Made by a program: the position numbers and the translations under genes. The notes under the pieces are model-generated. The model had not been told where the DNA came from, searched no databases, and saw only the letters and a program-made list of their open reading frames with translations. Of a stretch of DNA of 64,000 nt, positions 5,114 through 54,935 are shown one piece after another. The DNA is taken from contig NC_091980.1 in the NCBI RefSeq assembly GCF_044704955.1, forward strand, positions 129,394,001-129,458,000. The letters are read 5' to 3'. The DNA is from Pristiophorus japonicus. Taxonomy: Eukaryota. Every line of letters starts with the position of its first letter. Position 1 is the stretch's first letter.

Positions 5114-5189
5114 CTTCACTATCTATATTATACTATTATTTCTCACAATCACCTGCCACGTTCTAACACTGACCCTTTCTCACACAAGC

Positions 5190-5280
5190 TCCTGTATTTA
5201 TACGACTGGGACAGCCTGAATTCAAAGAAGGAATGACATCACCAATGATGATTGACAATCCCTGAGAGCCAATCAGGAAT
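5190..5280 (-). promoter_or_regulatory. Core promoter of A1: TATA box, CRE-like site, CCAAT boxes
   Basis: TATAAATA on the minus strand at 5202-5195, about 80 nt upstream of the ATG. TGACATCA near 5233 and CCAAT near 5242 and 5269. The same layout occurs upstream of A2. Confidence 0.6.
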
Positions 5281-5309
5281 CTTCCTTGAATCCAGTTACC
5301 AATTAACAA

Positions 5310-5960
5310 AGAAAACATAGAAAAATAGGAGCAGTCGTAGGTCATTCGGCCCCTAGAGTCTGCACCATCATTCAATTTGATCATGGCTGATCCTCTATCT
5401 CAACACCATATTCTTGCTTTTTTTTTGGGGGGGGCGGGGTGGGGCTGAAGCCCAGAGCCAATCAGAGCTTTGGAAAATATGCCATTTGGCCCAATCAGTC
5501 CATGCCGGTGTTTATGTTCCAGTCGAGCCTCGCCTTTCCTCTACATCTATCAGCATAACCCTCTATTCCCTTCTCCATCTTATGCTTGTCTATCCTCCCC
5601 TTAAATGCTTCCATACTGTTCACTTAAACCACTACCTGTGGTAGCGAGTTCAACGTTCTCACCACTCTCTGCGTAAAGACGGTTGTCCTGAATTCCCTAT
5701 TGGATTTCTTGGTGTCTATCATATATTGATGGCCTCTAGTTTTGCTCTTCCCCACAAGTGGAAATATTCTCTCTGTATCCACTCTATCAAACCTTTCATA
5801 ATTATAAGGACCTCTATTAGGTCACCCCCCCGCCCCCCCTCAGCGTTCTCTTTTCAAGAGTAAAGAGACTCAGCCTGTTTATCCATTCACGATAGGTATA
5901 CCCTCACATTTCTGGTATTATCCTTGTAAATCTTTTTTGCACCCTCTTCAGTTGTTCTGT
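5310..5960 (-). mobile_element. CR1/SINE 3' fragments
   Basis: Reverse-complement matches to the CR1 3' ends elsewhere in the window. Confidence 0.55.
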
Positions 5961-8351
5961 AACTGTGCCTCGTCATAGATTCATACAGCACAGAAGGAGG
6001 CCATCATGCCTGTGCAGGCTCTTTGAAAGAGTGATCCAATTAGTCCCACTCCTCAGTTCCTTCCCCATCGCCCGACAATATTTTTCTTTCCTCTTATATA
6101 TCCAATTCCCTTTTCAAAGTTACTGTTGAATCTGCTTCCATGGCCCTTTCAGGCAGTGTGTTCCAGATCACAACAACTCGCTGTGTAAAAACAATTCTCA
6201 TCTCTCCTCTCTGGTCCTTTGCCTTTCATGTTGGTGTTTCTCTGAGATCCAAAGCCATGATGTCTGGTTTCAGTGCAGAAGTGGTTCAGTCCTGGATTAG
6301 CTGATGAGAGGCATTCGCTTGGATTAAAACTCTGCTTTAGATGGGGCAGAGGGAGTGGCAATGAATCAGATCCGGAGCCACCAATCACACCACAGATCCT
6401 TATAATTATGAAAAGTTTGATAGAGTGGATAGAGAGAGAATGTTGACCCACCTGAACCAAACATGGATCTGGGTATTTACACCTGTATTGGTCAAAGGAT
6501 CCATGATGCAGTCACAAAGGGCTTTGAGCAAACTGATGGACATCACATAGTCACACTCAATGGCCACCCCGGTGGGCACTCGAGACTTTGATTCAGGCCT
6601 ATGGTTACTGGGTCTGAGGGAACCTTTGATCCTTTCCACAGGATCTCTTCGAATTCAGTGTCACTCCCTGTGGGGAATCGAGATGGTGATAGGCACAGAA
6701 AGCCCAAGGTGGTGAGATGCTTCCTTGGCCCTTGATGAATTTTCATACAATAGCAAATAAGGTGACTGGAAACTTGGAGAGATGTAAAGACATTAACAAG
6801 GAATGACTGAAGATGGCAATTTTATTGCACGCAGTGCAGTTCTCAAATAATTAATTTATAAACATTGGATAAACAGTTGTAGTGTGAACATTTGAATCCA
6901 TTCCTGCAGTGAAAGAGACACATGGGGATCCAGCAGGATTTGGAGAGGCTGATTGCTATTTGGTATGAAATGCACAAATGGATAAGATTATGGAGGAGCT
7001 GTATTGGGTTTATTAATTTGTGGAAGGGTGTGGTGAGGCAGGAGAAATATCTATTGTTTTTGCTTGGTGTTTAAGTTAACTGCTTTTTGCATTTAATGAA
7101 ATACATTTACTCTTTCCCGAAGAATTACATGTTATTCGAGTGCAATTCATGATTACTTCTCCCTTTAATGCCTTGTACAACTTTTTATACATGTAGGAGT
7201 CGAAGTAGACAGGTTATTCAATCCAGAGAGAGACAAAACAGAGAAAATGTTAAGAACCAAATTCAGTCCTCTCCCCTAAAAGGAATCCACACTTTTTGCC
7301 CCAAGAGGCCAGTAAGTAAATATATTATTTCAGGTGTATTTCACAATCATAGTTACCTTTAGTACCCTGGGTTCAGGGAGCTCCCACAATGAGCTCAGAC
7401 ATTGCTGGTCGCCACAGTCGTTCTGGTCAATTTTGTGGGTAAAGTAGCACAGAAATTCTGCAGCAGCAGCATGGAGCTTGGTTCCGTGAGCGACCTGCAG
7501 TGTATCCCACAGGTACTACTCAGTGGGATTGGTAGAAGCTGACAATAAATACCTAGACTGTTCTTCCCAAGCAGATACCATTCTTGAAATTGGATTGTTT
7601 CTGGGAATGAAATAATGTCACTCTAATTCATTGGCAAACTCTCCTTGCATTTTAATACAGTTACAGCAGCTGAGAGTTTGTTGTATTGAGGGATTAAAGA
7701 GAGTTGCCATTGATGCAGAGAGCAGAAAGAATATTTACCAGTAGAAGCAGTTACTTTGGCCCAAGCTCAAAGTTCACACCCCGAAAATTCTCTTCCCTCC
7801 CCCCTCGTCCAAGACACTCCTTAATACCTTCCTGTCTCATGTGTCTCACTCAAATTGTATTTAGTGACACTCCTGCAAAATGTCTTAGTGAAATGTACTA
7901 TGTTAAAGGAGCTATATAAAATCGGCAAATTGTTGTGTTACAGCATTTATCTTCACCTCTGCTGCAACACAATCACTGAAAGGCAAGAAGACAATTTGCT
8001 CCCAAGTTATAAACCAAATTGAAATTAGATCTTCGACATGCAACACTGAATATCCAGCTCAGTAAATTAAACTTACATCTAAAGGAAAATCGAAAATAAA
8101 GCTGTTACACAGCCCAGTGTAATTCTAGTCTGATGTAAACCAATTCATGTTAATCTGAAGATAAGCAACCACTCGAATTTACAAGGAGACAAAACACAGT
8201 CCAATATTGGGCAGTTTATTTACAGTTAATTACATTTCACACCAAGAGCACAGGTCTCAACCTATACAAAGTCACTAGTCATCATTCTCTACTTGATTGA
8301 ATCTCGCACACAATTATATAAAACACAATAAGCTTGTTCCTGGCAGTCAGT

Positions 8352-11855
<3,504 letters not shown>

Positions 11856-11867
11856 CCTAATTTGCTT

Positions 11868-11900
11868 TTCCAAAATTCTAAGCCTTATTGAAGCAAGAAG
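11868..11900 (-). promoter_or_regulatory. Degenerate iron-responsive element in the 5' UTR of B1
   Basis: Gene strand CTTCTTG-C-TTCAA-TAAGGC-TTAGAATTTTGGAA. The 5' arm matches the ferritin IRE (TTCTTGCTTCAA) but the loop is not CAGUGN. Confidence 0.6.
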
Positions 11901-12149
11901 CTGAGACTTAGCTCATTTCAAACTCCTGTCTTGAAACTGCTGGATAATCCAGGGGTGGACAGCCTAGCTGTGAGTGACATTCCTCAATACCCAATCACAA
12001 GTTGCAGCCTCTGTCAGAGCACCAATCAAGTAAAGGGAGGAGGGGCCATGACTCCCAGCGCCAGTCATGAACTTTGAAGAATGAACATCATTGACTGACT
12101 CTGCTTTTTGCCGGCAATTGTCAATATAAAGTCAAGCATGTACCCCCTT

Positions 12150-12420
12150 TTTAAAGGAGCATAACCAATAAAGACTGCTAAAAAATATGTTAAAGGAAAC
12201 TTAAGAAATTAAATTAAAATTCTATACCCGGGGTGATGATGCACTCCAGTCTCTTCTCTCACGGAAGGCTACGAGCGTGCCGATGGACACCGCATGCTCC
12301 ATCTCCAGGGACACCCGGGCGCGAACGTAGCCGCGGAAGAGAGATGGGCAGTCGGACCGAATGAACACCTCGAACAGCCGCTGCCCGACCCTGTTGATGG
12401 CCCACTTGCCCAGGTTAATT
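12150..12420 (-). mobile_element. Tx1/L1-like LINE 3' fragment (paralogs about 20720-20995, 46340-46615, 55080-55350)
   Basis: KWAINR..DCPSLFRGYVRARVSLEMEHAVSIGTLVAFRER resembles the Tx1 ORF2 C-terminus. Confidence 0.55.
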
Positions 12421-12824
12421 GAAGCCTCCGTTGTTTGCAAGTCAGTGTCTTTTTAATAGTTCTGCGCGGTTCAGTGGGTTGAACATTTTCAGGTATCTGC
12501 GGATGCAACATCCAAAGGCAGACCAGTGAGTCTGCAAAGCAACCGACAGCGGGTCAGGTGACTGGACAGTGCGTGTGAGGAATGTGACAAGCGCAAGTGC
12601 TCAGATACTCCATCACTTCCAAGTTTAGTGAGCACCTGTACACACAGGAGCTAGAATGTGGCGAGGACCGTGGGATTTTGAGTTCTTGTTATGTTACCAT
12701 GACATTTTACAAACAATGAAATGGACTGCTGTCCAAAAAGAAAGAAAGACTTGCATCCGAATATCTCCTTGCATCTAGACTTCATTGTGGCAGCCTTGGG
12801 AACGCTTATCCTATTAGAAAGAAG

Positions 12825-13140
12825 AAATAATTACATTTATATAGCGCCTTTCATGGTCTCAAGATGTCCCAAAGGTCTTTACAACAAATGAAGTATTTTT
12901 GGAAGTATAGTCAATGTTGTAATGTAGGAAATTACAACAATGCGTGCGGCAGACAATTTGCGCACAGCAAGCTCCCGCAAACAGCAGTGTGATAATGACC
13001 AGATAATCTGTTTAGGTTGAGGGATAAATATTGTCAAGGACAACAGAGAGAACTCCCCCTGCGCTTCTTCGAAATACCATCCTGAGATCTTTTATGTCCA
13101 CCTAAGTGAGCAGCGGTCTGGCGCCTCATCCGAAAGGCAG
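12825..13140 (-). mobile_element. Deu-domain SINE fragment (paralog about 47000-47240)
   Basis: Reverse complement of the SINE body at 4305-4530, running directly into the 33-bp array. Confidence 0.65.
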
Positions 13141-13535
13141 CACCTCCGACAGTGTTGGTCTTCCTCAGTACTGCCCCTCCGACAGTGCTGGTCTCCCTCA
13201 GTACTGCCCCTCCGACAGTGCAGCGCTTCCTCAGTACTGCCCCTCTGACAGTGCAGCGCTCCCGCAGTGCTGCCCCTCCGACAGTGCAGCACTCCCTCAG
13301 TACTGCGCCTTTGACAGTGCAGCGCTCCCTCAGTACTGCCCCTCCAATAGTGCAGTAGTTCCTTAGTACTGCCGTTCCAACAGTGCAGCACTCCTCAGTA
13401 CTGCACCTCTGACAGTGCAACACTCCCTCAGTACTGCCCCTCCGAAAGTGCAGCGCTCCTTCAGTACTGTCCCTCTGACAGTGCAATGCTCCCTCAGTAC
13501 TGCACCTCTGACAGTGCAGCACTCCCTCAGTACTA
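13140..13535. repeat. 33-bp minisatellite, about 12 units
   Basis: Unit cagtactgcccctccgacagtgcagcactccct. It explains the 11-aa periodic ORFs in several frames. Confidence 0.92.
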
Positions 13536-14369
13536 CCTCTTGTCTGTCAATATCTAGCTCAATCATCTCTAAATTCTCCACGGTCTCTGCCTCCGCGATT
13601 CCCAGACTCAACTCCTGTGTTGGTGGCTTGTGGCCCAGAGCCATTTAGTTTGTGTTCCCACTGTCGAATTAACTTCCCTTCTCTCATTCTCTTGCATGTT
13701 CCCAAATTTAATGCTATTTCCCACCCAGCAGCGCATCTCGATACCTTTGTATTTGTAGGACTGCCTCGCCCCTATTATTAGATCCATGCAAGTTTTGAAT
13801 GTGTATGTGTTTTTTTTTATGTTTTAAATATCTGAGAAGACACCTTTTGCACTTGTGCATTCTGTCTGATTTTACATGTACTACGGTAATTCTGCAGTAC
13901 ATTCTGATGGGGCTTGACAGGATAGATGTAGGGAGGATGTTTCCCCTGGCTGGGGAGTCTAGAATACGTGCTCACAGTTTCAGAATAAGCAGTCGGCCAT
14001 TTAGGATTGAGATGAGGAGAAATTTCTTCACTCAGTCGGTGGTGAATCTTTGGAATTCTCAACCCCAGAGAGCTGTGGAGGCTGCGTCATTGAATACATT
14101 TAAGGTGGAGATAGATGGATTTTTGAACGATAAGGGAGACAAAGGTTATGGGGAACAGGCAGGAAATTGTTGAGGCCAAGATCAGATCAGTCATGATATT
14201 ACTGAATGGAGGTGCAGGCTTGAGGGGCCAAATGGACTAATCACATGATGTAAACCTCTCTGCCTCCTTTAAGACACTTGACCAGTTCAGCTGTTGTATT
14301 ACAGCATTGCAACACAAGAATGAAATGCATGAATAGAATTTGCAAGATATACGTAGAATTGAAATGAGG

Positions 14370-15490
14370 TCTTCAACATGTCTGGATATCTGTCGTAGAT
14401 TGGGTTTTGTGCAATGAAAAGGGGTTAATTAATTGTCTTTTTATGCAGGGTCCTTTAAGGAAGAGTGACCATAACATGATTGAATTCATGAAGAAATTCT
14501 TCAAGAAGATGGAAAGTGAAGTAGTCCAATCCAAAACTCGGGTCATAAATCTAAACAAAGGAAACTACGAAGGTGTAAGGAATTAATTGTCTATGATAGA
14601 TTGAGAATATTAATTAAAAGTCATGACGATAGATAGTAAACGGCTAACATTTAAGGAACGAATGCATGAATTGCGACATTTATACATTCCTTTCTGGTAC
14701 AAAAACACAAAAGGAAAATTGGCCCAACCACATCTTACAAAATAAATTAAGGGTAATATTCGATCCAAAGAGGAGTTATACAAAATTGCCAGAAAAAATA
14801 GCAAGCCTGAGGATTGGGAACAGTTTAGAATTCATCAAAAAAGGATCAAGAGATTGATTAAGAGGGAAAAATGAGTATGAGATTAAACTTGCAAAGATCA
14901 TAAAAACCGACAGCAAAAGTTTCTACAAGTACGTAAAAAGAAAAAGATATTGAAGATAAATGTAGGTCCTTTACAGTCAGAAACAGGAGAATTTATAATG
15001 GGGAACAAGGAAATGGCAGAACAATTAAATACTTCAGCTGTCTTCACAGAAGAGGACACAAATAACATCCCAGAAATGCTAGGAAACTAAAGGTCTAGTG
15101 AGCAAGAGAAATTAAAGGGAATGAATATGAGTAAGAAAATAGTGCTGGAAAAATTAATGGGACTGAAAGCTGATAAATCGCCAGGGCCCTGATAATCTGC
15201 ATCCCAGAGTATTAAAAGTGATAACCATCGAAATAGTGAATGCATTGGTTGTCATCTTTCAAAATTCTATAGATTATGGAACAGTTGCTGCGGATTGGAT
15301 GGTGGCAAATGTAACCTCACTATTTAAAAAGGAGGAAGAAAGATAGATATCTTGATACAAAAGGCATCAAGGGCTATGGGGTAAAAGCATGAACATGGTG
15401 ATGTTAAAGGATCAGTTTTGATCATATTGAATGGCGGTGCAGGCTTAAAAGACTGAATGGCCTACTACTGCTCCTATATGTTTTTATGAA
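14370..15490 (+). mobile_element. CR1 LINE ORF2 fragment
   Basis: LKADKSPGPDNLHPRVL-like segment and a CR1 3' end. Internally deleted relative to the paralog at 48010-49875. Confidence 0.75.
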
Positions 15491-16012
15491 TATAAATATT
15501 AAAATTAACCCAGCAAAAAGAGAAAAATTATTAGGACTGTTCCCACTGGCAGAAGGGTTGAGAACCAGCAGACACAGATTTAAGGTGATTGACAGAAGAA
15601 CCACAGCGGACATGAGGAAAAACTTTTATGCAGTGAGTGCTTAGTATCTGGACTGCACTGCCTGAGAGGGTGGTGGAGGCAGATTCAATCGTGGAATTGA
15701 ACAAGTAGCTGAAAGAATAAAAATTGCAGTGCTACAGGGAAAGTGCAGGGGAATAGGACTAGCTGAAGTGCTCTTGGCAAGCCAGCACAGGTTCGATGGG
15801 CTGAATGGCCTCGCGGGCTGTAACCAATGTATGACTGTTGCATAGCTGAGTGCAATACTTGTGCTGCAAACAAGTTATGGTAAATGGAAAATAAGCAACC
15901 ACTCAAACTTGCAAGGAGACAAAACCCAGTCCAATGTTGAACAGTTTATTTAGTTAATTACATTTCACATCAAGAGCCCAGGACACCCACACACGAGTAC
16001 TGGTCAGAAGCT

Positions 16013-20333
<4,321 letters not shown>

Positions 20334-20404
20334 CTTAATGTTTTATTTTTTTCAAAGTAAAAAATTTATCAAATTACAAAGGTAACATTGAGCAAAGCTC
20401 AAAC

Positions 20405-20580
20405 TCCTATATTTACACTGAGGGATAATCCAGGGTGTGGCACTCTTGATGATGAGTGACAGTCATCAATACCCAATCAGAAGTTGCAGCCTCTCAGAGC
20501 ACCAATCAAATAAAGGGAGGAGGGGGATGGACTCCCAGAGCCAGTCAGATCTTTGAAGAATGAGCTTCATTGGCTGACAA
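20405..20580 (-). promoter_or_regulatory. Proximal promoter of C1
   Basis: TATA variant TGTAAATATA (20417-20408), CCACACCC (20440-20433), CCAAT at 20473 and 20502. The block is conserved upstream of B1, B2 and C2. Confidence 0.6.
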
Positions 20581-21129
20581 CTCAATGAGGATCTCAATTG
20601 TCCGAACTTTCCTCAAACACAGTTCAAATATCCCGAGTCACAGGTTTAATTGGATCCTCTATTCTTTGGGCTAATTATTGGAATGTTTAATTCAACTATC
20701 GGAAACACTTAAACAATAAGTGCCCCCTTTATAAGAGGGATTAAACTGTAAGATCCACATTATGACAAATCTAACATAAAAACTTGAAAAATGTTACTTT
20801 ATTTCCCTGTATCCACGCTGCACTCCAGTCCCTCTGATGCCTACCGGTCACGGAAAGCCTCAAGCATATCGGCAGACACCGCGTGCTCCCATTCCAGGGG
20901 CACTCGGGCACGGAAAAAGTCGCGGAAGAGAGGCAGGCAGATGGAGAGAACACCCCATCGACCGTGCTCTGTCTGGACCAGTTAATGGCCACCTTGAAAG
21001 ATTCATTGAATCCTCTGTTGTTTGCGAGTCAGTGTCTTTTTAATAGTTCTGGATTGTTCAGTAGGTTGGTCATTTGCAGGTATCTGCGGGTTTGAAGCAA
21101 CATCCAAAGAACTCATTGGACATTTGTCG

Positions 21130-21310
21130 CTAGACTTATGTCTAGAAATAGAGACAGAGAAGTCGAGAAAGGGAAGTGAAGTGACCGAGATGGACCATGT
21201 GAAGGTGAGTGAAGGGTGGAAATTGGGAACATAGTGAATTAAATTTTCCAGTTTATTGTGAGAGCAGGAAAAGGCACCGATGTTATCAATGTGCTGGAAA
21301 AAGAGGTGAG
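21130..21310 (-). mobile_element. Penelope-like RT fragment (paralog about 55495-55660)
   Basis: HIDNIGAF..NFHPSLTFTWSISVTSLPFLDFSV. Confidence 0.6.
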
Positions 21311-21596
21311 TGAGGGGCCATGGTGGGATTTTAATACAAGGATAAGAATCTTGAATTTGAGGCGCTGTCAGACCGGGAGCCAATGATGGTCCACAAGCAC
21401 AGGGGTCATGGGTGAGTGGGACTAGATGTGTGTTAGGATACGGGCAGCAGAGTTTTGGATAAGCTTAAGTTTATGGAGCATGTAAGGCTAGCAGGAGAGC
21501 ATTGAAATAGTCAATTCTAGAGATAAAAAGGCACAGATGAGTGTTAACCATTGGCGCAGTTCTGAGCTCAGAGCGAGGAATACCTGCAGCTGAACC

Positions 21597-23088
21597 CATC
21601 ATCATAGGCAGTCGCTCGGCATCGAGGAAGACTTGCTTTCACTCCTAAAGTGAGTTCTTTGGTGGCTGAACAGTCCAACATGAAAGCCACAGACCCTGTC
21701 ACAGATGGGACAGATATTCATCGGGGGAAGGGGGTGGGTGGCACTGATTTACCACATGCTCCTTCCGCTGCCTGCGCCTGACCTCTTCATGTTCGCAGCT
21801 TTGAGATTCGAAGAGCTCAACACCCTCCCGGATGCACTTTCTCCACCTAGGGACGTCTTCGGCCAGGGTCTCCCAGGCATCAGTGGTGCTGTCGCACTTC
21901 TTCAGGGAGGCTTTGAGGGTGTCCTTGAAACATGTCCGCTGACCACTTTTGGCTCGTTTGCCATGAAGGAGTTCTGCATAGAGCAGTTGCTTACGGAGTC
22001 TCATGTCTGGCATGTGGACTAAGTGGCCTGCCCAGCAAAGCTGATCGAGTGAGGTTATTGCTTCAATGCTGGGGATGTTAGCCCGGGCGAGGAAACTGAT
22101 GTTGGTGCATCTGTCTTCCCAGGGGATTTGCAGGATCTTCCGGAGACATCTTTGGCGATATATCTCTAGCGACTTGATGTGCCTTCTGTAAGTCGTCAAT
22201 GCCTCTGATCCATACAGGAGGGTGGGTATTGCTACAGCCCTGTAGACCGTGAGCTTGGTGGTAGATTTGAGGGCCTGGTCTTCGAACACTCTTTCCTCAG
22301 GCAGCCGAAGACTGCACTGGCGCACTGGAGGCGATGTTGAATCTCCGCATCAATGTCTGCCTTTGTTGACAGGAGGCTCCCAAGGTATGGGAAGTGGTCC
22401 ACGTTGTCGAGGGCCACGTCGTGAATCTTGATGTCTGGAGGGCAGTGCTGTGCGGTGAGGACAGGCTGGTGGACAACCTTTGTATTACAGATGTTAATCG
22501 TAAGACCTATGATTTCATATGCCTCGGTGAATACATCGAATATATCCTGGAGTTCAGCCTCAGAATGTGCGCAGACACAGGCGTCGTCCGCATACTGCAG
22601 TTGAACGACAGAGGTTTGGGTGGTCTTGGACCAGGTCTGGAGACGGCATAGGTTAAACTGCTTCCCACTGGTTCTGTAGTTTAGTTCCTCTCCAGCGGGG
22701 AGCTTGTTGACAGTGAGGTGGAGCGTGGCAGCGAGGAAGATTGAGAAAAGCGTTGGAGCAATGACGCAGCCCTGTTTGACCCCGCTTTAGACGAGGAATG
22801 GGTCTGCAACAAATCCGCTGATACGGATCACGGCCTGCATGTCGTCGTGGAGCAGGCGAAGGAAGTTGACAAACTTTTGGGGGCAGCCAAAACGGAGGAG
22901 GACGCTCCATAAGCCCTCACGGTCGACAGTGTCAAAGGCCTTTGTAAGATCGAAAAATGCCACGTATAAGGGCTGGTGCTGCTCCCTGCACTTTTCCGGC
23001 AGTTGGCGTGCTGCAAAGATCATGTCCATTGTTCCCCGTAGGGGACGAAATCCGCACTGTGACTCTGGGATGAGCTCCTCGGCCACAC
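21597..23088 (-). mobile_element. 5'-truncated RTE-clade LINE, decayed reverse transcriptase
   Basis: ESQCGFRPLRGTMDMIFAARQL..FFDLTKAFDTV, GVKQGCVIAP, QYADD and FPYLGS motifs, with a (TGA)n tail. Confidence 0.88.
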
Positions 23089-23766: not shown

Positions 23767-23979
23767 TTTTATGTATTTAACCCCTTGCACCCTGTATTAC
23801 ATCACCACCAGAGGGCCTAACTGTAGGAGTCCAAAGGGATCCGAGCATCCCTTGGGAGCACGGTATATAAGCATGCCACCCACGAGGTACCTGCACACTG
23901 GAGTGTTATTAAAGGAGCTAAGGTCACAATTGCTCATTGTTCACAGTACTCAGTTTTATCCTTTATAGAGAAAGCATCA
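23767..23979 (+). mobile_element. Solo LTR (Gypsy-type)
   Basis: About 213 bp flanked by a caaag TSD, with TATATAA and an ATTAAAG..AGGTCAC motif like the other LTRs. Empty site near 58103. Confidence 0.75.
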
Positions 23980-23994
23980 CAAAGAGTACGGTAA

Positions 23995-33042: not shown

Positions 33043-35564
<2,522 letters not shown>

Positions 35565-35629
35565 CTTCACTATCTATATTTCACTGTCACCTGCACAGTT
35601 CTGGAACTCACTCTGTCTTGCACAAGCTC

Positions 35630-35720
35630 CTGTATTTATACTATTGGAACAGCTGCATTCAAACAGGGTATGACATCACCAATGATGATTGGCTCTCAAG
35701 GATTGTCAATCAGGAATCTT
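35630..35720 (-). promoter_or_regulatory. Core promoter of A2
   Basis: TATAAATA at 35640-35633, TGACATCA and CCAAT/ATTGG motifs, homologous to 5190-5280. Confidence 0.5.
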
Positions 35721-37241: not shown

Positions 37242-37852
37242 ATAGGAGCCGGGAGGTCTTACTGCAGTTGTACAGAGCCTTAGTGAGGCCTCACCTGGAA
37301 TATTGTGTTCTGTTTTGGTCTCCTAATCTGAGGAAGGATGTTCTTGCTGTTGACGGAGTGCAGCGAAGGTTCACCAGACTGATTCCCGCGATAGCAGGAC
37401 TGACATATGAGGAGAGACTGGATCGACTAGGCCTGTATTCACTGGAATTTAGAAGTACGAGAGAGGATCCCATAGAAACATATAAAATTCTGACGGGACT
37501 GGACAGGTTAGATGCAGGAAGAATGTTCCCAATGTTGGGGAAGTCCTAAATCAGGGGACATAGTCGAAGGAAGGAGTAAGCCATTTCGGACTTTAGGACT
37601 GAGATGAGGAGAAATTTTTTCAGAGAGTTGTTAACCTGTGGAATTCCCTACCGCAGAGTGTTGTTGATGCCAGTTCATTGGATATATTCCAGAAGAACTT
37701 AGATATGGCCTTTACAGCTAAAGGGATCAAGGATTATGGAGAGAAAGCAGGAAAGGGGTACTGAGGTGAATGATCAGCCATGATCTTGTTGAATAATGGT
37801 GCAGGCTGGAAGGGCCAAATGACCTACTCCTGCACCTATTTACTATGTTTCT
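37242..37852 (+). mobile_element. CR1 LINE 3' fragment
   Basis: LYRALVRPHLEYCVLFWSP..VQRRFTRLIP..YEERLDRLGLYSLE. Absent at the paralogous sites near 515 and 6493. Confidence 0.82.
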
Positions 37853-38223
37853 AAGCAGTGAATGTCCTGCAGTCACACAGGGCTTCGAGCAAACTGATGG
37901 ACATCACATGGTCACACTCAATGGTGACCCCGATGGGCACCAGATACTGCCATTTGATATATGGTGACTGGAAACTTCTTTGTGATGCAAATACATGGAA
38001 TGACACAACAGCAATTTCATTGCACTCACTACAGCTCTGAACTAATTTTATAAAGTTAACTTGTGTAAATGAAGTTGAGCGTGGATTTCCCAGTCACCCA
38101 ATTGTACTTCCATTGACCCCTTGTATCATGGCTCACTCAATGAGCTCAGTCATTGGGGGTGGAGATCAGTAGTATGTGCAATTTGCCCACAAAGCTGACC
38201 AGAAAGTCGATAGCAGCAACAAT

Positions 38224-39240
38224 GGGCCCAAGTTTCCACATGATTCGCGCCTGATTTTTAGGAGCAACTGGTGGAGAACGGACTATTTTAGAAATCGCAA
38301 TTCTCCACATTTTTTTTTCTGCAGTTCTAGTCAGGTAGAACAGTTCGAGTTTCGAACAGAATTTTTTCTTCAAAAGGGGGCGTGTCTGACCACTGACGCC
38401 TGATTTGAAAGTTTCCAGAGTGAAAATGTACTCCAAACTGAAGTAGAATGGAGCCAGTGAAGATTTTTGTAGAACTGAAAAAACCTGTTCTACACATTAA
38501 AAAATCAGGCGCAGGTTACAAATTAGGCGTCCAGAACGAGGTGGGGGGGGAGGGGAACTCATTAAATTCGACAATAAATCCTTATTTATACTTCTACAAA
38601 TAAATCCAACCTGAATAAACATTTATAAGCCACGAAAAGATTAAATAAACCATCTTCCTACCTGTGTGAAAGTGCTTCAGCCAGGGAGAATTCTGCAGCC
38701 GTTTGTGCCGCTGAGCGGGAGAGGGGGGGGGGGGGGGGAAGAGGAGAGAGATAGCGAGAGCGAGAGCGAGGAGAGGGGGGGGGCGTCGGGTCGGGTCAGT
38801 CCGGTGGGGGGGGGGAAGAGCGGGTGTCGGGTCGATGCTGGGGGGGGAGCGGGTGTCGGGTCGGGTCTGGTCGGCTGGGGGGGGGAAAAAAGAGAGCGAG
38901 TGGCGGGTCTGGTCAGGCGGGGAGCAGGAGCTGGCCATGGGAGGAGCCCCACTGAGGCCATTGGGCCAGGGCTAGGGGCTGCGTGCTTCGGGCCCCTCCC
39001 ACAAAGTTCGGCGCCTGGAGCTACTGCACTTGCGTGCCGACTGTAGCGCGCATGTGCAGAGGTCCCGGCCCTGTTTTCAGCGCCGGGACCTGACTCCGCC
39101 CCCCCACAGCTCGTGCTGACTGTGCCAAGGGCCAGAGGATCTGTAAGTAGGTGCAGACTACCGAGGATTGTTTTAGGCATGAAAATCGGGCGCCCAGCTC
39201 GGAGGGGTGCCTGTTTTTTTTCTTGTGGAAACTTAGGCCC
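38224..39240. mobile_element. Non-autonomous DNA transposon (PIF/Harbinger-like MITE)
   Basis: About 20-bp TIRs gggcccaagtttccacatga / tcttgtggaaacttaggccc and a 3-bp TSD aat (38221-38223, 39241-39243). GC-rich low-complexity core, no transposase. Absent from the paralogous spacers near 1700 and 7470. Confidence 0.8.
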
Positions 39241-40127
39241 AATGTGTTTATATGCTACAGGAGTAACTCAGAAGCAGCATTGGTAGTTTACTTTAACTAA
39301 ATAATACCTAAACTGGGAGGGTTCATTTAGAATGAAATAGTTAAACAAACACTCTTCCTACATTGAACATTACAGCAGTTGACATTTTGTTGTATCGAGG
39401 GGTTAAATTGTTGCTATTGATGCAAAGGGCAGAGAGAATATTCATCACCAGTGGGAGTGGTTACTCGTATTCAGTTGCCTTGGCCCCCTATTGTAGAGTC
39501 CCCTCCCTACATAAGAAATAGGAGCAGGAATTGACTATTTGGCCCCTCAAGCCTGCTGTATTATTCAGTAAGATCACGACTGATGTGATCTTGGCCTCAA
39601 ATCCACTTTCCTGCATGCTCCCCAGAATCATCGACGCCCAAAGAGCTTACCTCTTGGACTATGCTCCTGGGTATCTGTTCCATGCACATGTGGTTCAGGT
39701 CTTTTTACAGGTACGACATGAATGCAAGTTGTTGGATTACAGCATTGCAACAATCATTGAAAGGCACCAAATAATTTACTCTAAATGGATACACAGACTT
39801 GGAATGACATCTTCAACACGAGACCTTGATGATGCAACTCAACAAATCAGATGTACACCCAAAGAAAAGGAGGAACAATAAAGTGGTTACACAGCCCAGT
39901 GTAATTCTGGGCTGACATTAATCTGAAAATAAGCAACCACTCACTCAAATTTACAATGAGACAAAATCCAGTCCAATACTGAACAGTTTTTTTACATTTC
40001 ACATCATACAGCCAGGTCTCACAGCCTGTACAAAGTCACAGGCTGTCATTCTCTACAGGACAGGGTCTCACACACAATTATATAAACACTCGTACTGAAC
40101 ACAATAAGCTTGTTCCTGGCAGTCTGT

Positions 40128-46048
<5,921 letters not shown>

Positions 46049-46060
46049 CCTAATTTGCTT

Positions 46061-46093
46061 TTCCAAAAATCTAAGCCTTGTTAAAGCAAGAAG
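46061..46093 (-). promoter_or_regulatory. IRE-like hairpin with a variant loop in the 5' UTR of B2
   Basis: Gene strand CTTCTTG-C-TTTAA-CAAGGC-TTAGA-TTTTTGGAA: C bulge, 5-bp upper stem with one U-G pair, 6-nt loop with C1 and G5. It lies about 30 nt downstream of TATAAA (46129-46124). Confidence 0.6.
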
Positions 46094-46119
46094 CTGAGAG
46101 TTAGCTAATTTCAAACTCC

Positions 46120-46295
46120 TGTCTTTATACTGCTGGATAATCCAGGGCGGGACAGTCTAGCTGTGAGTGACATTCCTCAATACCCAATCACAAGTTGCAG
46201 CCTCTGTCAGAGCACCAATCAAGTAAAGGGAGGAGGAGACATGACTCCCAGAGCCAGTCATGAACTTTGAAGAATGAGCATCATTGGCTGACTCT
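46120..46295 (-). promoter_or_regulatory. Proximal promoter of B2
   Basis: TATAAAG at 46129-46123, GC box GGGCGG near 46145, two CCAAT boxes about 30 bp apart. Confidence 0.6.
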
Positions 46296-47239
46296 TCTTT
46301 TTGTCAGCAGCAATTGTCAATTTAAAGTTAAGCATGGGCCGCTTTTTAAAGAGGCACAACCAATAAAGACTGCAACTTCACAAAAGATGTTAAAAGAAAC
46401 TTAACAAGTTAAATAAAAATTCTATACCCGGGGTGATGATGCACTCCAGTCCCTCCTCTCACAGAAGGCTGCGAGCGTGTCGATGGACACCACATGCTCC
46501 ATCTCCAGGGACACCCAGGCGCAAATGTAGCCACGGAAGAGAAGCGGGTTGTCGGGCCGAATGACCACCTGGAATGCCCGCTGGCCAGCCCTGTTGACGG
46601 CCTCTTGCCCAGGTTACTTGAATCTTCCGTTGTGTGCGAGTCAGTGTCTTTTTAATAGTTCTGTGTGGTTCAGTGGGTTGGTCATTTTCAGGTATCTGTG
46701 GATGCAACATCCAAAGACAGTGCAGTGATGTTGCAACGCAACCGGCAGCGGGTCAGGTGAATGGACAGTGCGTGTGAGGAATTTGACAAGCTCAAGTGCT
46801 CAGATACTCCATCACTTCCAAGTTTAGTGAGCACCTGTACACACAGGAGCTAGAATGTGGCATGGACCGTGGGATTTTGAGTTCTTGTTATGTTACCATG
46901 ACATTTTACAAGTAATGAAATGGACTGAAGTCCAAAAAGAAAGAATATCTCCTTGCACCTGGACTTAATTGTGGCAGCCTTGGGAACGTTTATCCTCTTA
47001 GAAAGAAGAAATAATTCCATTTATATAGCCCTTTCATGGCCTCAGGATGTCTCAAAGCTCTTTACAACCAATCAAGTTCAGCAGTGTGTTAATGACCAGA
47101 GAATCTGTTTTGGTTGCGGGATAAATATTGTCAAGGGCACTGGAGAGAACTCCCCCTCCGCTTCTTCGAAATAGCATCCTGAGATCTTTTACGTCTACCT
47201 AAGAGAGCAGACAGTCGAGCATCTCATCTGAAAGACGGC

Positions 47240-47437
47240 ACCTTCGACAGTGCAGCAATCCCTAAGTACTGCCCCTCTGACAGTGCAGCAATCCCTCAGC
47301 ACTGCCCCTCTGACAATGCAACGCTCCCTCAGCACTTCCCCTCCAACACTGCGGCACTCCCTTAGTACTGCCCCTCCGACAGTGCGGCGCTCCCTCAGTA
47401 CTGCCCCTCTGAAAGTGCGGCACTCCCTCAGTACTGT
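47240..47437. repeat. 33-bp minisatellite, about 6 units, followed by a short (TG)n
   Basis: Same unit as 13140-13535 at the paralogous site. Confidence 0.9.
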
Positions 47438-47777
47438 GTGAGTGTGTGTGTGTGTGGAGGCAGGGTCATTGAATAAATTTAAGGTGGAGGTAGATAGATT
47501 TTTGAACAATAGGTGAGTCAAGGGTTATGGGGAACAGGCAGGAAAGTGTTGAGACCAAGATCAGACCAGCCATTGTTTTATTGAATGGCGGTGCAGGCTC
47601 GAGGTGCCAAATGACATATGCATGTTATTATGTAAACCTCTCTACCTCCTTTAAGACACTAACATTTACCTGTGGTCCCACTGCCTTATGTGGCTGAACA
47701 AACGTGAACATTTTCAACTGTTGTATTGCAGCATTGCAATGCTAGATTGAAATGCATGAATAGAATTTGCAAGATAT

Positions 47778-47984
47778 TCTCTTATGTATTAATGCGTGGG
47801 GGTCACAAGACACCAGAGGGTGCCACAGTCGGAGATCATCGGGCTGTACACACGTGGCATGTGTGCTTGATCACCTGTATGTAAGCTGGGTGTCTTTGTC
47901 ATGCTGGCACTCTTGGGCTGGAATAAAGATGGATGATGTTGCACCTGAGTGAGTTTACAGTAACCAGATTTTTGAGACATTACA
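47778..47984 (+). mobile_element. Probable solo LTR
   Basis: About 205 bp absent from the paralog near 14350, with caccagaggg, AATAAAG and a ..ttaca end. Confidence 0.55.
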
Positions 47985-48009
47985 TATACATACAATTGAA
48001 ATTAGGTCT

Positions 48010-49875
48010 TCAACATGTCTGAATACCTATCATAGATTGGTATTATGCAATGAGAAGGGATTAATTAATAGTGTTTTTGTGTGGGGTCCTTTAGGGAAGA
48101 ATAATCATAACATGATTGAATTTTTCATGAAGATTGAAAGTGAAGTTGTCCAATCCAAAACTAGGTCCTAAATCTAAACAAAGGAAACTACGAAGGTATG
48201 AGGAATGGTTATGATAGATTGGGAAGAGTCATTAAAAGGCATGATGGTGGATAGTCAATGGCTAACATTTAAGGAACGAATGCATGAATTGCAACAATTA
48301 TACATTCCTTCCTGCTGCAAAAACACAAAAGGAAAAGTGGCCCAACCATGGTTTACAAAAGCAATTAAGAATAGTATTAGATCCGAAGAGGAGTTATACA
48401 AAGTTGCCAGAAAAAGTAACAAGCCTGAGTATGGAGCAGTTTAGAATTCAGCAAAAAACGACCAAGAGATTGTTTAAGAGGGGGAAAATAGTATCTGAGA
48501 CTAAACTTGCAATGATCATAAAAACCGACTGTAAAGGTTTCTCCCAGTATGTAAAAAGAAAAAGATTAGTGAAGACAAATGTAGGTCCTTTTCAGTCACA
48601 AATGGGATAATTTATAATGGGGAACAAGGAAATGGCAGAACAATTAAATACCTCGGTTCTGTCTTCACAGAAGAGGACACAAATAACATCCCAGAAATGC
48701 TAGGAAACTAAGGGTCTAGTGACCAAGAGAAATTAAAGGAAAGGATTATTAGTAAGAAAACAGTGCTGGAGAAACGAATGGGACTGAAAGCTGATAAATC
48801 CCCAGGGCCTGATAATCTGCATCCCAGAGTACTAAAAGTGGTAGCCATGGAAATAGTGGATGCATTGGTTATCATCTTCCTAAATTCTACAGATTATGGA
48901 ACAGTTGCTGCAAATTGGAGGGTGGCACATGTAACCCCACTATTTTAAAAAGGAAGGAAAAAGAAAACAGGTAACTGCAGCCCGGTTCACCTAACATTAG
49001 TAGAATGTGATAAAGGGACTCTTAGAAAATATCAACGGGATTAGACAAAGTCAATATGGATTTACGAAAAGAAAATTGTGTTTGACAAACCGACTGGAGT
49101 TATTTTTTTGAGGATGTAACTGAGATTAGATAAGGGGGAACTAGTGGATGTCGTGTATTTGGATTTTCAGAAGGCCTTTGATAAAGTCCCACAAGAGGTT
49201 AGTGTGCAAAATTAAAGAACATGGGATTGGGGGTAATATATTGCTATGGATTGAAAATTGGTTAATTGATAGAAAACAGTTGGAATAAACAGGTCTTTTC
49301 CTGGGTGGTGGGTGGTGACGAGTGGGATACCACAGGGATCAGTGCTTGGGCCACAGCTAATCACATAAATAGAAACTACACCTGGTGTATTGTGCACAGT
49401 TTTGGGTCTCCGAAAGAGCGCAGCAAAGTTCCACCAGACTGATCCCTTGGATGGAAAGATTGTCATGTGAAGAGAGAATAGCTTGACCAGGCCTGTTCAC
49501 CAGAAGAGTGAAAGGGGATCTTATTAAATCATAAAATTCAGACTGGTTTGGAGAAATTGGATGTGGGGAGGAAGTACCCCTTTGCTGGGAAGTGAATAAA
49601 AAGTGACAGGCTCAGAATACGAGGTAGGAAATTTAGCGCAGAGATGAGAAATGTTTTCACTCAGGATGGGGAAGCTGGGGAACTATTGACTACAGAAGGC
49701 AGTGGAGCCCAATTGCTGAATATATTTAAGAAGATACGATATCTTGATACAAAAGGCATCAGGGGCTATGGGGTACAAGCATGACATGGTGGTGGTAAAG
49801 TATTAGTTATCATATTTAATGGTGGTGCAGTCCTTAAAGAAGGACCAAATGGACAACAACTGCTCTTTATGTTTT
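48010..49875 (+). mobile_element. CR1 LINE ORF2 fragment
   Basis: [32 protein letters not shown] and GIPQGSVLGP motifs. Confidence 0.8.
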
Positions 49876-50436
49876 TGTGAATATAACTCAATATATTGAA
49901 ATTACGCCAGCAAAGAGCAAAATTATAGGACTGTTAACACTGGCAGAAGGGATGAGAACCTCCAGACACAAATTTAAGACAATTGGTAGAAGAACCACAG
50001 CTGACATGAGGATAAACTTTTATGCAGTGAGTGGTTAATATCTAGATTGCACTGCTCGAGAGAGAGTGGTGAAGGCAGTTTCAATCATAGGATTGAACAA
50101 GTACATGAAGGAAAAACATTGCAGGGATACAGGGAAAATGCAAGGGAGTAGGACTAGCTGAAGTGTTCTTGGAGAGCCAGCTGAGTGGTTACAGCACAGG
50201 AGGCCAATGTATGATTGTTGCATAGCCTAGTGCAATACTTATGCTGCAAACAAGTTATGGTAAATGGAAAATAAGCAACTTGCAAGGAGACAAAACCCAG
50301 TCCAATATTGAACAGTTTATTTACAGTTAATTACATTTCACATCAAGAGCCCAGGTCTCAGCCTGTACAAAGCCACCATTCTATGTAGGACAGAGTCTCA
50401 CACACATTGTATAAACATGAGTACTGATCAGAAGCT

Positions 50437-53400
50437 TCAGTCACTCTCCCCCAGAGTGTGCTTGTCAAACAGGTACTCTCCCAAGCCATTCTCAAGGGCT
50501 CCCAGTCTCTTCAGGTTGGTGATGTGATCGCCAAGCTTCTTGATCATCTTCACTTGTTTATCCAAGTAGTTGGTCTTCAGGAAGTCACACAACTGAAGGA
50601 GGAACAGAAAGGAGTTATGGCCAGTAGCAGATATCAAGGAACATTGGAGCTTACTGCTTGAGAGTTTGAATTTTAGTCCTCTTGGACTGAGGATAGTTCA
50701 GTGGTGCAATTGAAATTGATGGAATTACTGCATCATTTCGATGAAAACTTGCTATACAAAAAGGAGCTGGGATCAGACACTTACAATATCTACCCTAAAA
50801 TAGACCCAACACAAAGCTATTGGGCACAGAGATCTTTTTAAATTAAGTCCAAGGACAGCAACTTACCCAAAAGCCCACATTGAAGCATTAGGAACTTACA
50901 TGAGGGTCAGTGCTCCCAGTGGAGAGTTTGTGCAGATCCAACAGACTCTGGTTCACATTCTTCTCCATTTGTAGAGCTCTCTGCATGACCTCCAGACCAT
51001 TGCTCCACTCATCCTGCTCTGGTTTCTGAAGAGAAAAGTCAGATTAAAACAAACAAGTATTTTTTGTCTTTAGATGCTCTGATAATGACTCCACGAGGCA
51101 ATGTATTGTACATTAACTGTATTGACCCTAGTGCGTTTAATGGAACTCCAGTGGTGAGGATCACACCTGGTGGCCTGCCACACCTGTGCAGGTAACCTGC
51201 AAGTCTGACTGCAGTGCCCTGTAGTGGCATATATGCAATACTACAAGCAGTAAAAACAAGTTTGGAAATAGGACCGTATTGAAGGAAATTAAGGATAAAA
51301 AAATGCAATCGGAAGTCTAGGTTACCATGAAACAATGTTTTAAAATATTGAATTACTGCATTAAGTCAACTACTGGTGTCAAATTTATGAGGTGAATAGC
51401 ATAGATGTATTTAAGGGGAAGCTAAATAAGTACATGAGGGAAAAAGGATTAGAACGACATGTTGCTGGATAAAGCAAGGTGGGAGGACAACATCTGGAGC
51501 CTGATCACCAGCATGGACCAGTTTGTCCAAATTGCTGGTTCCTGTGGAATTGGAACCAACTCCTTTACAATGTATTGTGAACAATCAGTTTAAGGGGAAC
51601 CAAACAGAAGGGCCCTCGTTTATGGAGCCAAACCTTGATGTCTGCCAAGATGATTCGGCCTCCACGCCGATTCTGGAATTGCATCAGTTTCTCAGCATGC
51701 TCACGTTCCTCATGTGACTGCTCCTTGAAGAACTCAGCAAAGTGACGCAGGGCAACATCATCCCGGTCAAAGTAGAAGGACTGCGGAGTGATCAGAAGAG
51801 TAGTTGATTATTGCATGGCAGACCCATCATGGGCACTGTACATGAAGCCAAACTCATGTTTCTTGTTTTAAGGGCTCAGTCTCACTGAACTTATGTATAG
51901 TTATGGAAACTAGCACCTACTCAAGTAACCTGGTAAAGATATTGGATAATCTCAGCTCCAGCCATAGGGAAACTTAACATGAGAAATATGAACAGGAGTA
52001 GACCACACAGCTGAGCCTGTTCCACCATTGAAGATTATGGCTGATCTGGTCATGGACTCATCCCCACCCATTCCCACATAACCCTTTAGCGTTTAAGAAA
52101 CTATTACAGTCTTAAATTTATTCAATGTCTCAGCTTTCCACAGCTGAGGCAGCAAATTCCACAGATTGACAACCCTCAAGAAATTTATCAGTTCTAAATG
52201 GGCAGCCCCTTATTCTAAGATCATGCCTCTAGTTGTTGTCTCCCCCATCAGTGGAAACATCTTCTGTATCCACCCAGCCATGCCCCCTCAATCTTATACA
52301 TTTCAATAAAATCACCTCATTCTTCTGAATTCCAATGAGTAGATGCAGCCCCCCCACCCCCCTCCACTCCTGCTGTACTGTGGCACTTAGCAATCTTGCT
52401 CCATTTAAATAAACATTTGCTCTTTGATTTTTTTTTTTTGCGCTAAAGTGCATGACCTCACTTTCCAATAGTCACATTTTTGCCCACTCACTTAGCCTGC
52501 CTATGTCCTTTTGCAGAAGTGTGTTCTCCTCACACATTACAGATACAAAGTTGGGAGGAATAGCAAACTAGGCTACGTTACCGAATTGGAAGGAGGGACA
52601 GAGTGTAATATATAGATTGTAAACAGTTGGGGTCCCAGCACTGATCCCTGCAGCACTCTACTGGATACTGGTTGCCAACCAGAGAATGAACCATTTATCC
52701 TGACTCTGTTCTTTAGCCAATCCTCTATCCATGCTAATATATTACCCCAAAGCCTATGAACTTTCATCTTGTGCAGTAATCTTTTGTGGCAACTTGTCAA
52801 ATGCCTTCTGGAAGTCCAAATACACCACAGCCACTGGTTCACCTTTAACCACCCTGTTTGTTACATCCTCAAAGAATTCCAGCAAATTTGTCAAACACTA
52901 CTTCCCTTCATAAATACATGCACACACTGCCTGATCAAATTTTGCTTTTCCAAATGTCCTGCTATGTTAATAATGGAAACCAACATTTTCCCCGTCACAG
53001 ATTAGACTAACTGGTCTATAGTTTCATCCTTTTTATAAAAAAATAGGGGCATTACATTTGCAGCTTTCCAAACTGCTGGGAGCTCCCCAGAATCCAGGGA
53101 ATTTTAGTAAATTACAACCAATGCATCCACAATCCCTGCCGCTACTTCTCAAGACCCGAGGATGCAAGGCATCAGGACCATTTATCTGCCTTTAGCCCAA
53201 TTATCTTACTGAGTACGACCTCCTTCGGTGATTGTTACTGCATTAAGTCCCTCCCCCCTATAGCCCCTTGACTATCCATCATTGGAATGTTGTTACTCTC
53301 CTCTACTGTAAAGACAGATACAAGATATTTGTACAGATTTTCTGCCATCTCTATGTTGCCTATTACTAATTTCCCAGTCTCATCCTCTTGTGATTTAGAA

Positions 53401-54689
53401 AAATCTGCAGACTATGGAAATATGGAGTTGTATCACTCCACCCAACATTCAGCAAGGCACAATGGACTGAATGGCCTCCTGTAGTGCATCACTCCATGAT
53501 CACCAATTCAGCTTTGGTTGAACAGGCTTAAAACTGGAACATGAATCTTGGCACCCAATATTCATTGCAGCTCTGGAAATTAGTGAAGGAATTGCCACAA
53601 GATTTATACCCTGGTCACCAGTAGCATGTTCCAATAATAGTTTATTAACCCAAATACATTTTGTACAGGCTAGTTGAGGGGGTAGTATTAGAAGTCAAAG
53701 CAACTTCCAAAACTAGAGATCTAGTCACAGTGCAGAATTCATATGTATGAAAAAAAAAGTGAAGAACTAGCTGAATTTTACTGGCTACAATCATGCCAAG
53801 GAACTAAAACTACCACAAGCAGCATTAATTTGGCACACAGTCTATACCAAATCAAAGCATTGTAGAGGAGAACCAGAGACCACAGAATAAAAGTTTAGAG
53901 AACCCCTCAAAATTTGAGGTGCTTGGTGAAGGTCACAGGGGTTAAGGGAGTCCACTGAGTACAGACAATTGATGATTAACTTTCTTTGCTGTATTGATGC
54001 TAAAAGCTAGGGGAAAGACAGAATGATACAAACTGGTATTTAAAATTAAGAGGTTAGAAACACTTGGAACAGGAGGGAAGCAGAAACATTTGTAACACTT
54101 TCTTCCCATCCTCCCCCTGTGGAGGTGAGGGATGGCTGGGAAAGAAAGTGTTTCAGATTTCCATCTGGGAAAGAATACTTCCTGACATCCCTCCAAAAAA
54201 ATACAGCGAGGCCATTTATGACATCACCCATTGAACCAGCAAGGTAAGGAAAGTCCATGGAGTGATTTAGAATGAGGATACAAATTCTGAATTCCTTGCA
54301 TTGTGTGCAGAATATATTCCAAATAAACTTCATCAAGCTCAAGATCCCAGGAAAAAGAAAGATAATCAGATAATACATTTGCTGCAAGGAACAGAGAGAA
54401 TGTTAATAAATTCAAATTAAGATAAATTGTATCATATTATAGCTTTAAAAGTGAATTCAATGCATAGATTCAGTGGGGTGGGGGTGGGGCAGAAAGAGAG
54501 AAATAGGTGGGCTGAGTACAGCACAGGATTTCATAAATTTACATTACAAAGTCTCCATTGTGAAGTGGCAAAAAACACAAAACTCACCATAGAGATATAA
54601 ACATAGGAGGAATAGAGCTCCATGTTGATCTGCTTGTTGACAGCATGCTCACAGTCCTGGTGGTAATTCTGACACACTTGGGAAGCCAT
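50437..54689 (-). CDS. Ferritin heavy/middle-subunit-like protein, copy C2, intact ORF with altered channel residues
   Basis: Exons 54689-54588, 51780-51634, 51025-50900, 50592-50437, GT-AG, open frame. Exon 4 reads [23 protein letters not shown] at 54772-54765 and AATAAA at 50321-50316. Confidence 0.88.
51975..53390 (-). mobile_element. CR1 LINE fragments in intron 1 of C2
   Basis: [26 protein letters not shown]; paralog of 17600-19015. Confidence 0.78.
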
Positions 54690-54759
54690 CTTAATATTTT
54701 ATTTTTCCAAAGTAAAAACTTTGTAGAAGTACAAAGGTAACATTTCACCAAACTCAAAC

Positions 54760-54935
54760 TCCTTTATTTATACTGAGGGATAATCCAGGGTGTGGCACTC
54801 TTGATGATGAGTGACAGTCATCAATACCCAATCAGAAGTTGCATCTTCTCAGAGCACCAATCAAGTAAAGGGAGGAGGGAGATGGACTCCCAGAGTCAGT
54901 CAGATCTTTGAAGAATGAACATCATTGGCTGATTT
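54760..54935 (-). promoter_or_regulatory. Proximal promoter of C2
   Basis: TATAAATA at 54772-54765, CCACACCC at 54795-54788, paired CCAAT boxes. Confidence 0.6.

Follow-up and report, generated by a model that had tools for sequence, protein, structure and literature searches.

In this work we analysed 64,000 nucleotides (nt) of the Pristiophorus japonicus genome, hereafter the window, which lie at C4:129.39–129.46 Mb of this 5.9-Gb genome and contain six full four-exon ferritin genes (G1–G6) and exons 2–4 of a seventh (G7), all on the minus strand. A first-pass annotation had claimed that this whole cluster escaped translational control by iron-regulatory proteins (IRPs) acting through an iron-responsive element (IRE), each gene type by a route of its own. 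The window proves to be about 2% of a far larger ferritin array, and this array is without a canonical IRE. We consider it rather probable that, taken as a whole, the data reflect an IRE-free array of about 300 genes that came from the ferritin-M locus on contig C19, lost the IRE once in its types B, C and D, would be independent of IRPs and would serve bulk ferritin supply in the ovary.

The absence of a canonical IRE is indicated by several searches. An Rfam scan of the whole window gave no hit at the gathering threshold and seven hits at E ≤ 10, none of them to an IRE family, and a 121-nt scan focused on the leader of G5 gave no IRE hit either. The pattern C-N5-CAGWGH-N5 with at least four pairs is present at four coding-strand sites of the window, all far from the ferritin leaders. 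For the array at large we used our own script with the 22 motifs of SIREs (PMC12230718, Table 2) and published pairing rules (PMC2896125): no motif with pairing was found in 87 plus 20 distinct array upstream regions (107 in total), and two of two single-copy controls were detected. The exact IRE core occurs six times in the genome and the 23-nt core with up to three mismatches 22 times, in neither case on the 317-Mb contig C4 in which the array sits. CAGWGH lies 18–48 nt upstream in 19 of 222 exon-1 anchors (18 of type A and one of type D), and none of these 19 leaders, scanned at the locus itself or through an identical leader, pairs. The Rfam IRE family does find intact IREs of 45–46 bits on the single-copy H gene of C14 (locus L031), on the single-copy M-type gene of C19 (L036) as well as on four scattered pieces of the M leader; this genome-wide search, in which 82 of about 2.8 million candidates were scored, served for controls only. 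The earlier claim that the window genes have no canonical IRE is upheld by these searches. So is the description of their leaders as short: the ATG lies 89, 76, 81 and 83 nt from the TATA box in G1, G4, G5 and G6, and about 81 and 84 nt from the altered TATA boxes of G2 and G3.

Types B, C and D carry a decayed IRE. Compared with the ferritin-M IRE of the same genome, the remnant matches at 17 of 23 positions in both type B genes, G5 and G2 (shuffle p = 0.005), at 15 in G6 (p = 0.035) and at 12 in G3, which alone is not significant (p = 0.78). The annotation was right that in type B the 5' arm survives next to an altered loop. Its statement that type C shows no trace has to be given up, since the G6 remnant lies at the type B offset and aligns to type B without gaps. 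Sampling of the array showed that its majority type, D, is not present in the window, and the leaders of B, C and D align gap-free from the TATA box through the remnant. We defined 77 B/C/D leaders as those matching at least 12 of 23 positions at the expected offset. Their consensus, C-TTCAA-CAAAGT-TTAGA, compares with C-TTCAA-CAGTGT-TTGAA in ferritin M and agrees at 18 of the 23 positions. G16 is replaced by A in 76 of the 77 remnants and kept in one, and the A15-G16-U17 loop triplet is found in none. The 3' arm reads TTAGA, for TTGAA in ferritin M, in 47. C14 is present in 67 and G18 in 53 (each counted separately, not as a pair), position 8 is C in 54 and T in 20, and the upper stem can form all five pairs in 8 remnants, four in 39 and three or fewer in 30. 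Compared with ferritin M, the outer lower stem is gone and the leader is about 100 nt shorter. The derived loop is shared and the 3' arm mostly common, and therefore point to one loss followed by decay: the B/C/D majority is best read as having inherited one dead IRE, in which the loop went from CAGUGU to CAA(A/G)GY and the 3' arm from TTGAA to TTAGA. A separate route for each gene type does not fit a single loop lesion and mostly a single 3' arm in three types; only type A might differ.

Conservation of the remnant does not exceed that of the surrounding promoter (heterozygosity 0.237, against a promoter mean of 0.189, with 65% of the compared segments at least as conserved). A special constraint on it had been suggested by a core-anchored comparison, which was biased because its sequences had been chosen by their core, and disappears in an unbiased alignment. 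Synonymous divergence (dS) between the array and ferritin M is about 1.5, near saturation.

Type A leaders, by comparison with the ferritin-M IRE, have no recognizable remnant (11–12 matches of 23, p 0.6–0.9). The annotation had read CAGTGT-TAGAACG of G1 (type A1; 5171–5159) as a kept IRE loop. The motif is there and lacks a pairing 5' arm, as described, but its position rules out a loop: it starts at TATA+32, whereas the true loop of ferritin M starts at TATA+60, and it falls on the initiator offset, TATA+31..37, where it is a minority state (of 19 type A leaders tabulated, 16 read TGAG, 2 TTAG and 1 TCAG). The TCAG of A1 has the offset of the TCAG of ferritin M at which the longest dispersed leader copy begins. 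The A1 site is thus probably initiator-like, as predicted, and its C not even transcribed. G4 (type A2), which had been said to have lost even this motif, contains two unpaired motifs, CAGTGA at 35586 and CAGAGT at 35615. Many type A leaders have CAG 15 nt past the initiator A, which is the offset of the B/C/D loop. A loop remnant in the form of CAGGTG is a doubtful candidate for type A: the offset is right, but the overall match is no better than that of shuffled sequences. Type A might represent a second route of IRE loss, separate from that of B/C/D.

The features of the window are collected in Table 1. Three of the six complete genes are broken (G1, G2 and G4), both type A genes among them, a point overlooked when the whole cluster was described as having escaped: the absence of the IRE holds throughout, the question of control is moot for these three genes, and the sequence gives good support to an escape of the others from IRE/IRP control. 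Protein P0023 is identical at 164–165 of 176 positions to G3, G5 and G6, and matches the solved chains of human H (E 1e-89) and frog M (4e-85) over its full length. The window also contains 33-bp tandem repeats of one family at 13143–13534 and 47246–47436.

Table 1. Ferritin genes of the window and their leader elements (the ATG of G1 to G6 lies at the second coordinate)
Feature	Position	Strand	Description
G1	2573..5113	-	type A1, four exons; TAA in frame at codon 29; pseudogene
G1 TATA box	5197..5202	-	ATG 89 nt downstream
G1 TCAGTGT	5166..5172	-	at TATA+31..37; predicted initiator (role inferred), not an IRE loop
G2	8352..11855	-	type B; exon 4 start 2 nt short, frameshift; TATA altered; pseudogene
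G2 decayed IRE	11877..11899	-	C8 at 11893, loop TAAGGC; 17/23 vs ferritin-M IRE
G3	16013..20333	-	type C; 176-residue frame open; introns GT-AG; TATA altered
G3 IRE remnant position	20357..20379	-	strongly decayed, 12/23, alone not significant; colinear with G6
G4	33043..35564	-	type A2; exon 1 frameshift, exon 3 TGA; pseudogene; no IRE remnant; TATA at 35640
G5	40128..46048	-	type B; 176-residue frame open; introns GT-AG
G5 decayed IRE	46070..46092	-	C8 at 46086, loop CAAGGC; upper stem can still form five pairs; 17/23
G5 promoter	46124..46287	-	three CCAAT (239, 171 and 140 nt before ATG), TATA at 46129
G6	50437..54689	-	type C; 176-residue frame open; introns GT-AG
G6 decayed IRE	54713..54735	-	C8 at 54729, loop CAAAGT; 15/23, shuffle p = 0.035
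G6 promoter	54767..54928	-	three CCAAT (239, 172 and 143 nt before ATG), TATA at 54772
G7	62393..63446	-	exons 2–4; type A exon 1 just past the window end (locus L106)

The array is a tandem one of about 5.6 Mb (C4:127.78–133.41 Mb, the ends being placed from flanking stretches). Among exon-4 candidates, 149 of the 150 best (of 404) fall in C4:127.8–133.4 Mb; a 23-nt exon-4 motif allowing one mismatch has 323 matches genome-wide, with 97 of 100 in the array among the matches listed, and an exon-1 motif has 222. These counts suggest roughly 300 intron-containing paralogs of ferroxidase type. Among 58 gene models drawn from the best hits, which probably overestimates the intact fraction, 31 have open frames and 27 are broken; the stretches taken at L152, L169, L175, L178 and L187 contain no exon 1 and stand outside these models. 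All seven ferroxidase ligands, at the positions of the H-chain literature, are kept in 27 of the 31 open frames, those of G3, G5 and G6 included. Mean dN/dS is 0.25 over 32 stop-free coding sequences, and the open copies, about half of the sample, are under purifying selection. The database relatives of exon 3 come from cartilaginous fishes (sharks, rays, a chimaera) in 114 of 116 cases, and in a protein tree of 37 of these 116 hits the array-type proteins of shark, ray and chimaera are split from the canonical H and M of this genome by a branch supported at 99/94. In the flanks of the array the open reading frames listed contain only repeats.

Several observations concern the integrity of the array. 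A direct duplication with an offset of about 260.7 kb relates C4:129.00–129.24 to 129.26–129.50 Mb, the window lying inside; of five locus pairs compared, three show 99.9–100% identity, and the other two less when aligned without gaps. It may be either a recent duplication or an assembly duplication. Matching leaders reappear inverted near C4:129.5–129.8 Mb. Loci L154 and L166 have exon 1 about 450 nt from exon 4, exons 2–3 not being found in these copies. Outside the array, L037 (C4:113,437,280–113,437,611) is a retrocopy of an array-type mRNA that has no introns, a shifted frame and exons 2–4 contiguous, and therefore implies that array genes are transcribed in the germline; additional dispersed matches are present on C1 and C3.

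The likeliest source of the array is the ferritin-M locus. C19:93.05–93.15 Mb contains a small cluster of parent type, in which the IRE-bearing ferritin M is accompanied by an N-terminally extended gene, two open IRE-less paralogs and three array-like broken copies. Both open IRE-less paralogs are without several ferroxidase ligands. The leader of the intact paralog is much shorter and has no IRE remnant; one IRE-less relative has the CCAAT/TATA promoter of the array, and a DNA tree joins it to the array at 99/99. The extended gene (C19:93,128,523–93,141,730, plus strand; L110:1523–1723) contains introns, a GC-rich upstream region with no IRE, intact ferroxidase ligands and a 31-residue N-terminal extension rich in Arg, Leu, Ala and Gly, with which it looks like a mitochondrial ferritin, except that mammalian FTMT is intronless (PMC7760355, in the part available). 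The four dispersed fragments of the ferritin-M leader (L032 on C10, L033 on C12, L034 on C17 and L035 on C18) are copies of about 95 nt of its 5' end with intact IRE cores; they begin at or just past the predicted start site, and all end at one T-rich site. We take them to resemble tailless 5' retro-fragments. IRE-like cores with two mismatches each are also present at C20:22,404,665 and C3:267,221,567. Glycogen synthase, the neighbour of human FTL, was tried as a synteny marker and rejected; its hits, on C19 (at a distance of 4.3 Mb), C14 and C13 and none on C4, are too loose for orthology.

At the promoter, all 87 array upstream regions have two to five CCAAT boxes, against 0.67 expected per 210 nt, the copies being related. 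The array core promoter can be aligned with that of ferritin M, and CCAAT and TATA boxes lie directly 5' of each leader. Run X1 of a relative, guessed to be RNA, contains contigs that join exactly across introns 1 and 3 of G5; it gave no credible joint of exon 1 to an upstream exon, a result that counts neither way. At the other end of the genes, 46 of the 80 array 3' ends examined carry TGTAAATA in overlap with the poly(A) signal (G2, G4, G6 and G7 in the window, for example), and an 8-mer of this type was found at the poly(A) signal in none of the seven C14/C19 3' ends examined. The 8-mer has five bases in common with AATAAA and the copies are related, which makes the 46 cases non-independent. 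TGTAAATA could presumably be a Pumilio-type motif or a CFIm site. Strict cytoplasmic polyadenylation elements (CPE) are not enriched, with 3 in 80 array 3' ends against a shuffled mean of 7.5, and in G5 A[AT]TAAA was not found within 400 nt past the stop codon.

In the mechanism that we propose, IRP1 and IRP2 would not repress array mRNAs, the output of the array would be set by copy number and by the CCAAT/TATA promoter, and the single-copy H and M genes would keep their iron-responsive control. In the Greenland shark, according to the accessible sections of the preprint bioRxiv 10.1101/2024.09.09.611499, there are 334 ferritin copies (155 'FTL' and 179 'FTH1'). Most stand in large clusters, of which the biggest has 222 copies in about 4 Mb, synteny with the white shark and ovary-specific expression. 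By analogy, an array active in the ovary would provide eggs with ferritin at any level of cytosolic iron, and, if the array belongs to the same family as that cluster, stocking oocytes with ferritin is its most likely role. IRP independence of the array is strongly inferred rather than measured, and is moot for the broken G1, G2 and G4; regulation mainly by transcription, as proposed in the annotation, is a conjecture. Several points weigh against the account as a whole. The remnant consensus, at 18 of 23, resembles the IRE more than a dS of 1.5 predicts (P about 0.01–0.10 by the branch length assumed, under simple assumptions), a weak hint that the IRE may have outlived the duplication from M before breaking. 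The start sites of the array are predicted, not mapped. The contigs of run X1, itself only guessed to be RNA, include canonical ferritin-M-like sequence. Leaders were scanned for pairing in 107 of roughly 300 cases. Ovary expression is taken from the cluster of another species. Finally, type A finds no place on the path of a single loss, trees within the array being largely unresolved and not giving the order of types A–D.

The evidence bears unequally on other explanations. An independent loss of the IRE in every gene type, each by its own route, is improbable: the lack of a remnant in type A, together with the short, remnant-free leader of the intact C19 paralog, makes a second route by deletion or overwriting possible, and the CAG at the B/C/D loop offset in many type A leaders is also in its favour, but B, C and D share A16, mostly the TTAGA arm and a gap-free alignment, and the CAGTGT of A1 is an initiator-offset minority state. 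The type B hairpin might instead be a weak IRE that still binds the shark IRP. The frequent C8, C14 and G18, the remnants with five upper-stem pairs and a consensus nearer the IRE than a neutral clock predicts would agree with this. However, the contacts required by IRPs comprise A15, G16, U17 and C8, with G16 and U17 contacting IRP1 (PMC8466369, as far as its available text goes), and no B/C/D remnant retains AGU; in addition, CAAGGY and CAAAGT are absent among the 22 SIREs motifs, Rfam gives no hit, there is no excess conservation and the minimum-energy fold of the G5 leader is a different hairpin, so that residual IRP binding appears quite improbable. A canonical IRE supplied by an upstream non-coding exon, the finding that could have overturned the annotation, was sought with Rfam in the window and with core patterns on C4. 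Neither search found one, the patterns allowing up to three mismatches across the contig, and such an exon is very unlikely, the more so with a conserved promoter, alignable to that of ferritin M, directly 5' of each leader.

Two further alternatives leave the loss of the IRE intact and concern its meaning. Array mRNAs could escape IRPs and still be under another translational control, such as masking of maternal mRNAs through the 3' untranslated region, in which case "mainly transcriptional" would be wrong. The 8-mer, if it is a Pumilio-type motif, is in line with this by its presence at array and not C14/C19 poly(A) signals, but the relatedness of the copies, the bases shared with AATAAA and the scarcity of CPE speak against it, and we regard it as unlikely. 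A stronger contender, although still a doubtful one, is passive decay of the IRE after acquisition of a tissue-restricted promoter, the array having grown by segmental duplication and birth-and-death with no selection for iron independence. The 27 broken models of 58, the recent duplications of 260.7 kb, in which identity reaches 100%, and the lack of special constraint on the remnant fit such a history. On the other side, dN/dS of 0.25 and the kept ferroxidase ligands indicate selected proteins, and the expansion is old and common to sharks (bioRxiv 10.1101/2024.09.09.611499, available sections); neither point addresses selection on the loss itself. We retain, as the rather probable account, one B/C/D loss in an IRP-independent array derived from ferritin M.

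More tentatively, one inactivating change in the IRE loop may have enabled the amplification of the array, by avoiding both repression and titration of IRPs. With a working IRE, hundreds of highly transcribed ferritin mRNAs would lie repressed in an oocyte hungry for iron; they would moreover soak up IRP1 and IRP2 and so deregulate transferrin receptor, ferroportin and ALAS2. PMC7760355, in the part available, raises such competition by IRE-bearing copies. With the IRE killed first, a 300-gene ferritin battery could supply egg iron, a vertebrate parallel, by gene dosage, to an IRE-less yolk ferritin, and a loss preceding amplification would be a clear case in which loss of a cis element enabled gene-dosage evolution. 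The array would also be a natural allelic series of the decay of a regulatory RNA element. The amplified copies appear freed from the best-known vertebrate translational switch, which the two housekeeping genes keep, and this adds a regulatory explanation to a shark ferritin expansion that was reported and left uninterpreted; it bears on iron supply to oocytes in large-egged sharks. It also calls for caution, as shark ferritin copy numbers taken as somatic or longevity traits need pseudogene counts and a check of tissue.

The expansion itself and IRE-less ferritins were already known; IRE loss across an array of about 300 genes is apparently new in the literature. We found no report on the IRE status of shark ferritin arrays or fish ferritin paralogs in a search that covered subscription journals thinly, the main text of the Greenland shark preprint, in its accessible part, has no occurrence of 'IRE' or 'iron', and PMC11719527, to the extent available, gives general background only. 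With the canonical vertebrate H and M ferritins (RF00037) the array has in common the four-exon layout, the ferroxidase ligands, an alignable core promoter and the position of the IRE; H and M of C14 and C19 differ in being single-copy, in their intact IRE of 45–46 bits, in a leader about 100 nt longer and by a dS of about 1.5. Snail yolk ferritin (Lymnaea, Biomphalaria; PMC10799875, available text) resembles the array in a link to reproduction and a 5' untranslated region without IRE, but is secreted, has a signal peptide and a 42-residue insert, and comes from a single gene in the digestive gland, whereas array proteins have 176 residues and neither feature. FTMT, which is not IRE/IRP regulated, and FTHL17, expressed in germ cells and present in six mouse copies, are like the array outside ordinary control (PMC7760355, same part); FTMT is an intronless mitochondrial retrogene and FTHL17 has no ferroxidase activity, whereas the array keeps introns, ferroxidase ligands and a decayed IRE in place. 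The teleost fthl27 of the hadal snailfish is tandem like the array, with 14 copies, but its expansion is twenty-fold smaller and it is broadly expressed (PMC10746142, in the portion available). The Greenland shark cluster is alike in its hundreds of clustered copies, compared here with 323 exon-4 and 222 exon-1 matches, and differs in that more than 85% of its copies are given as full-length in the accessible sections of the preprint, against 31 open frames among the 58 models sampled here.

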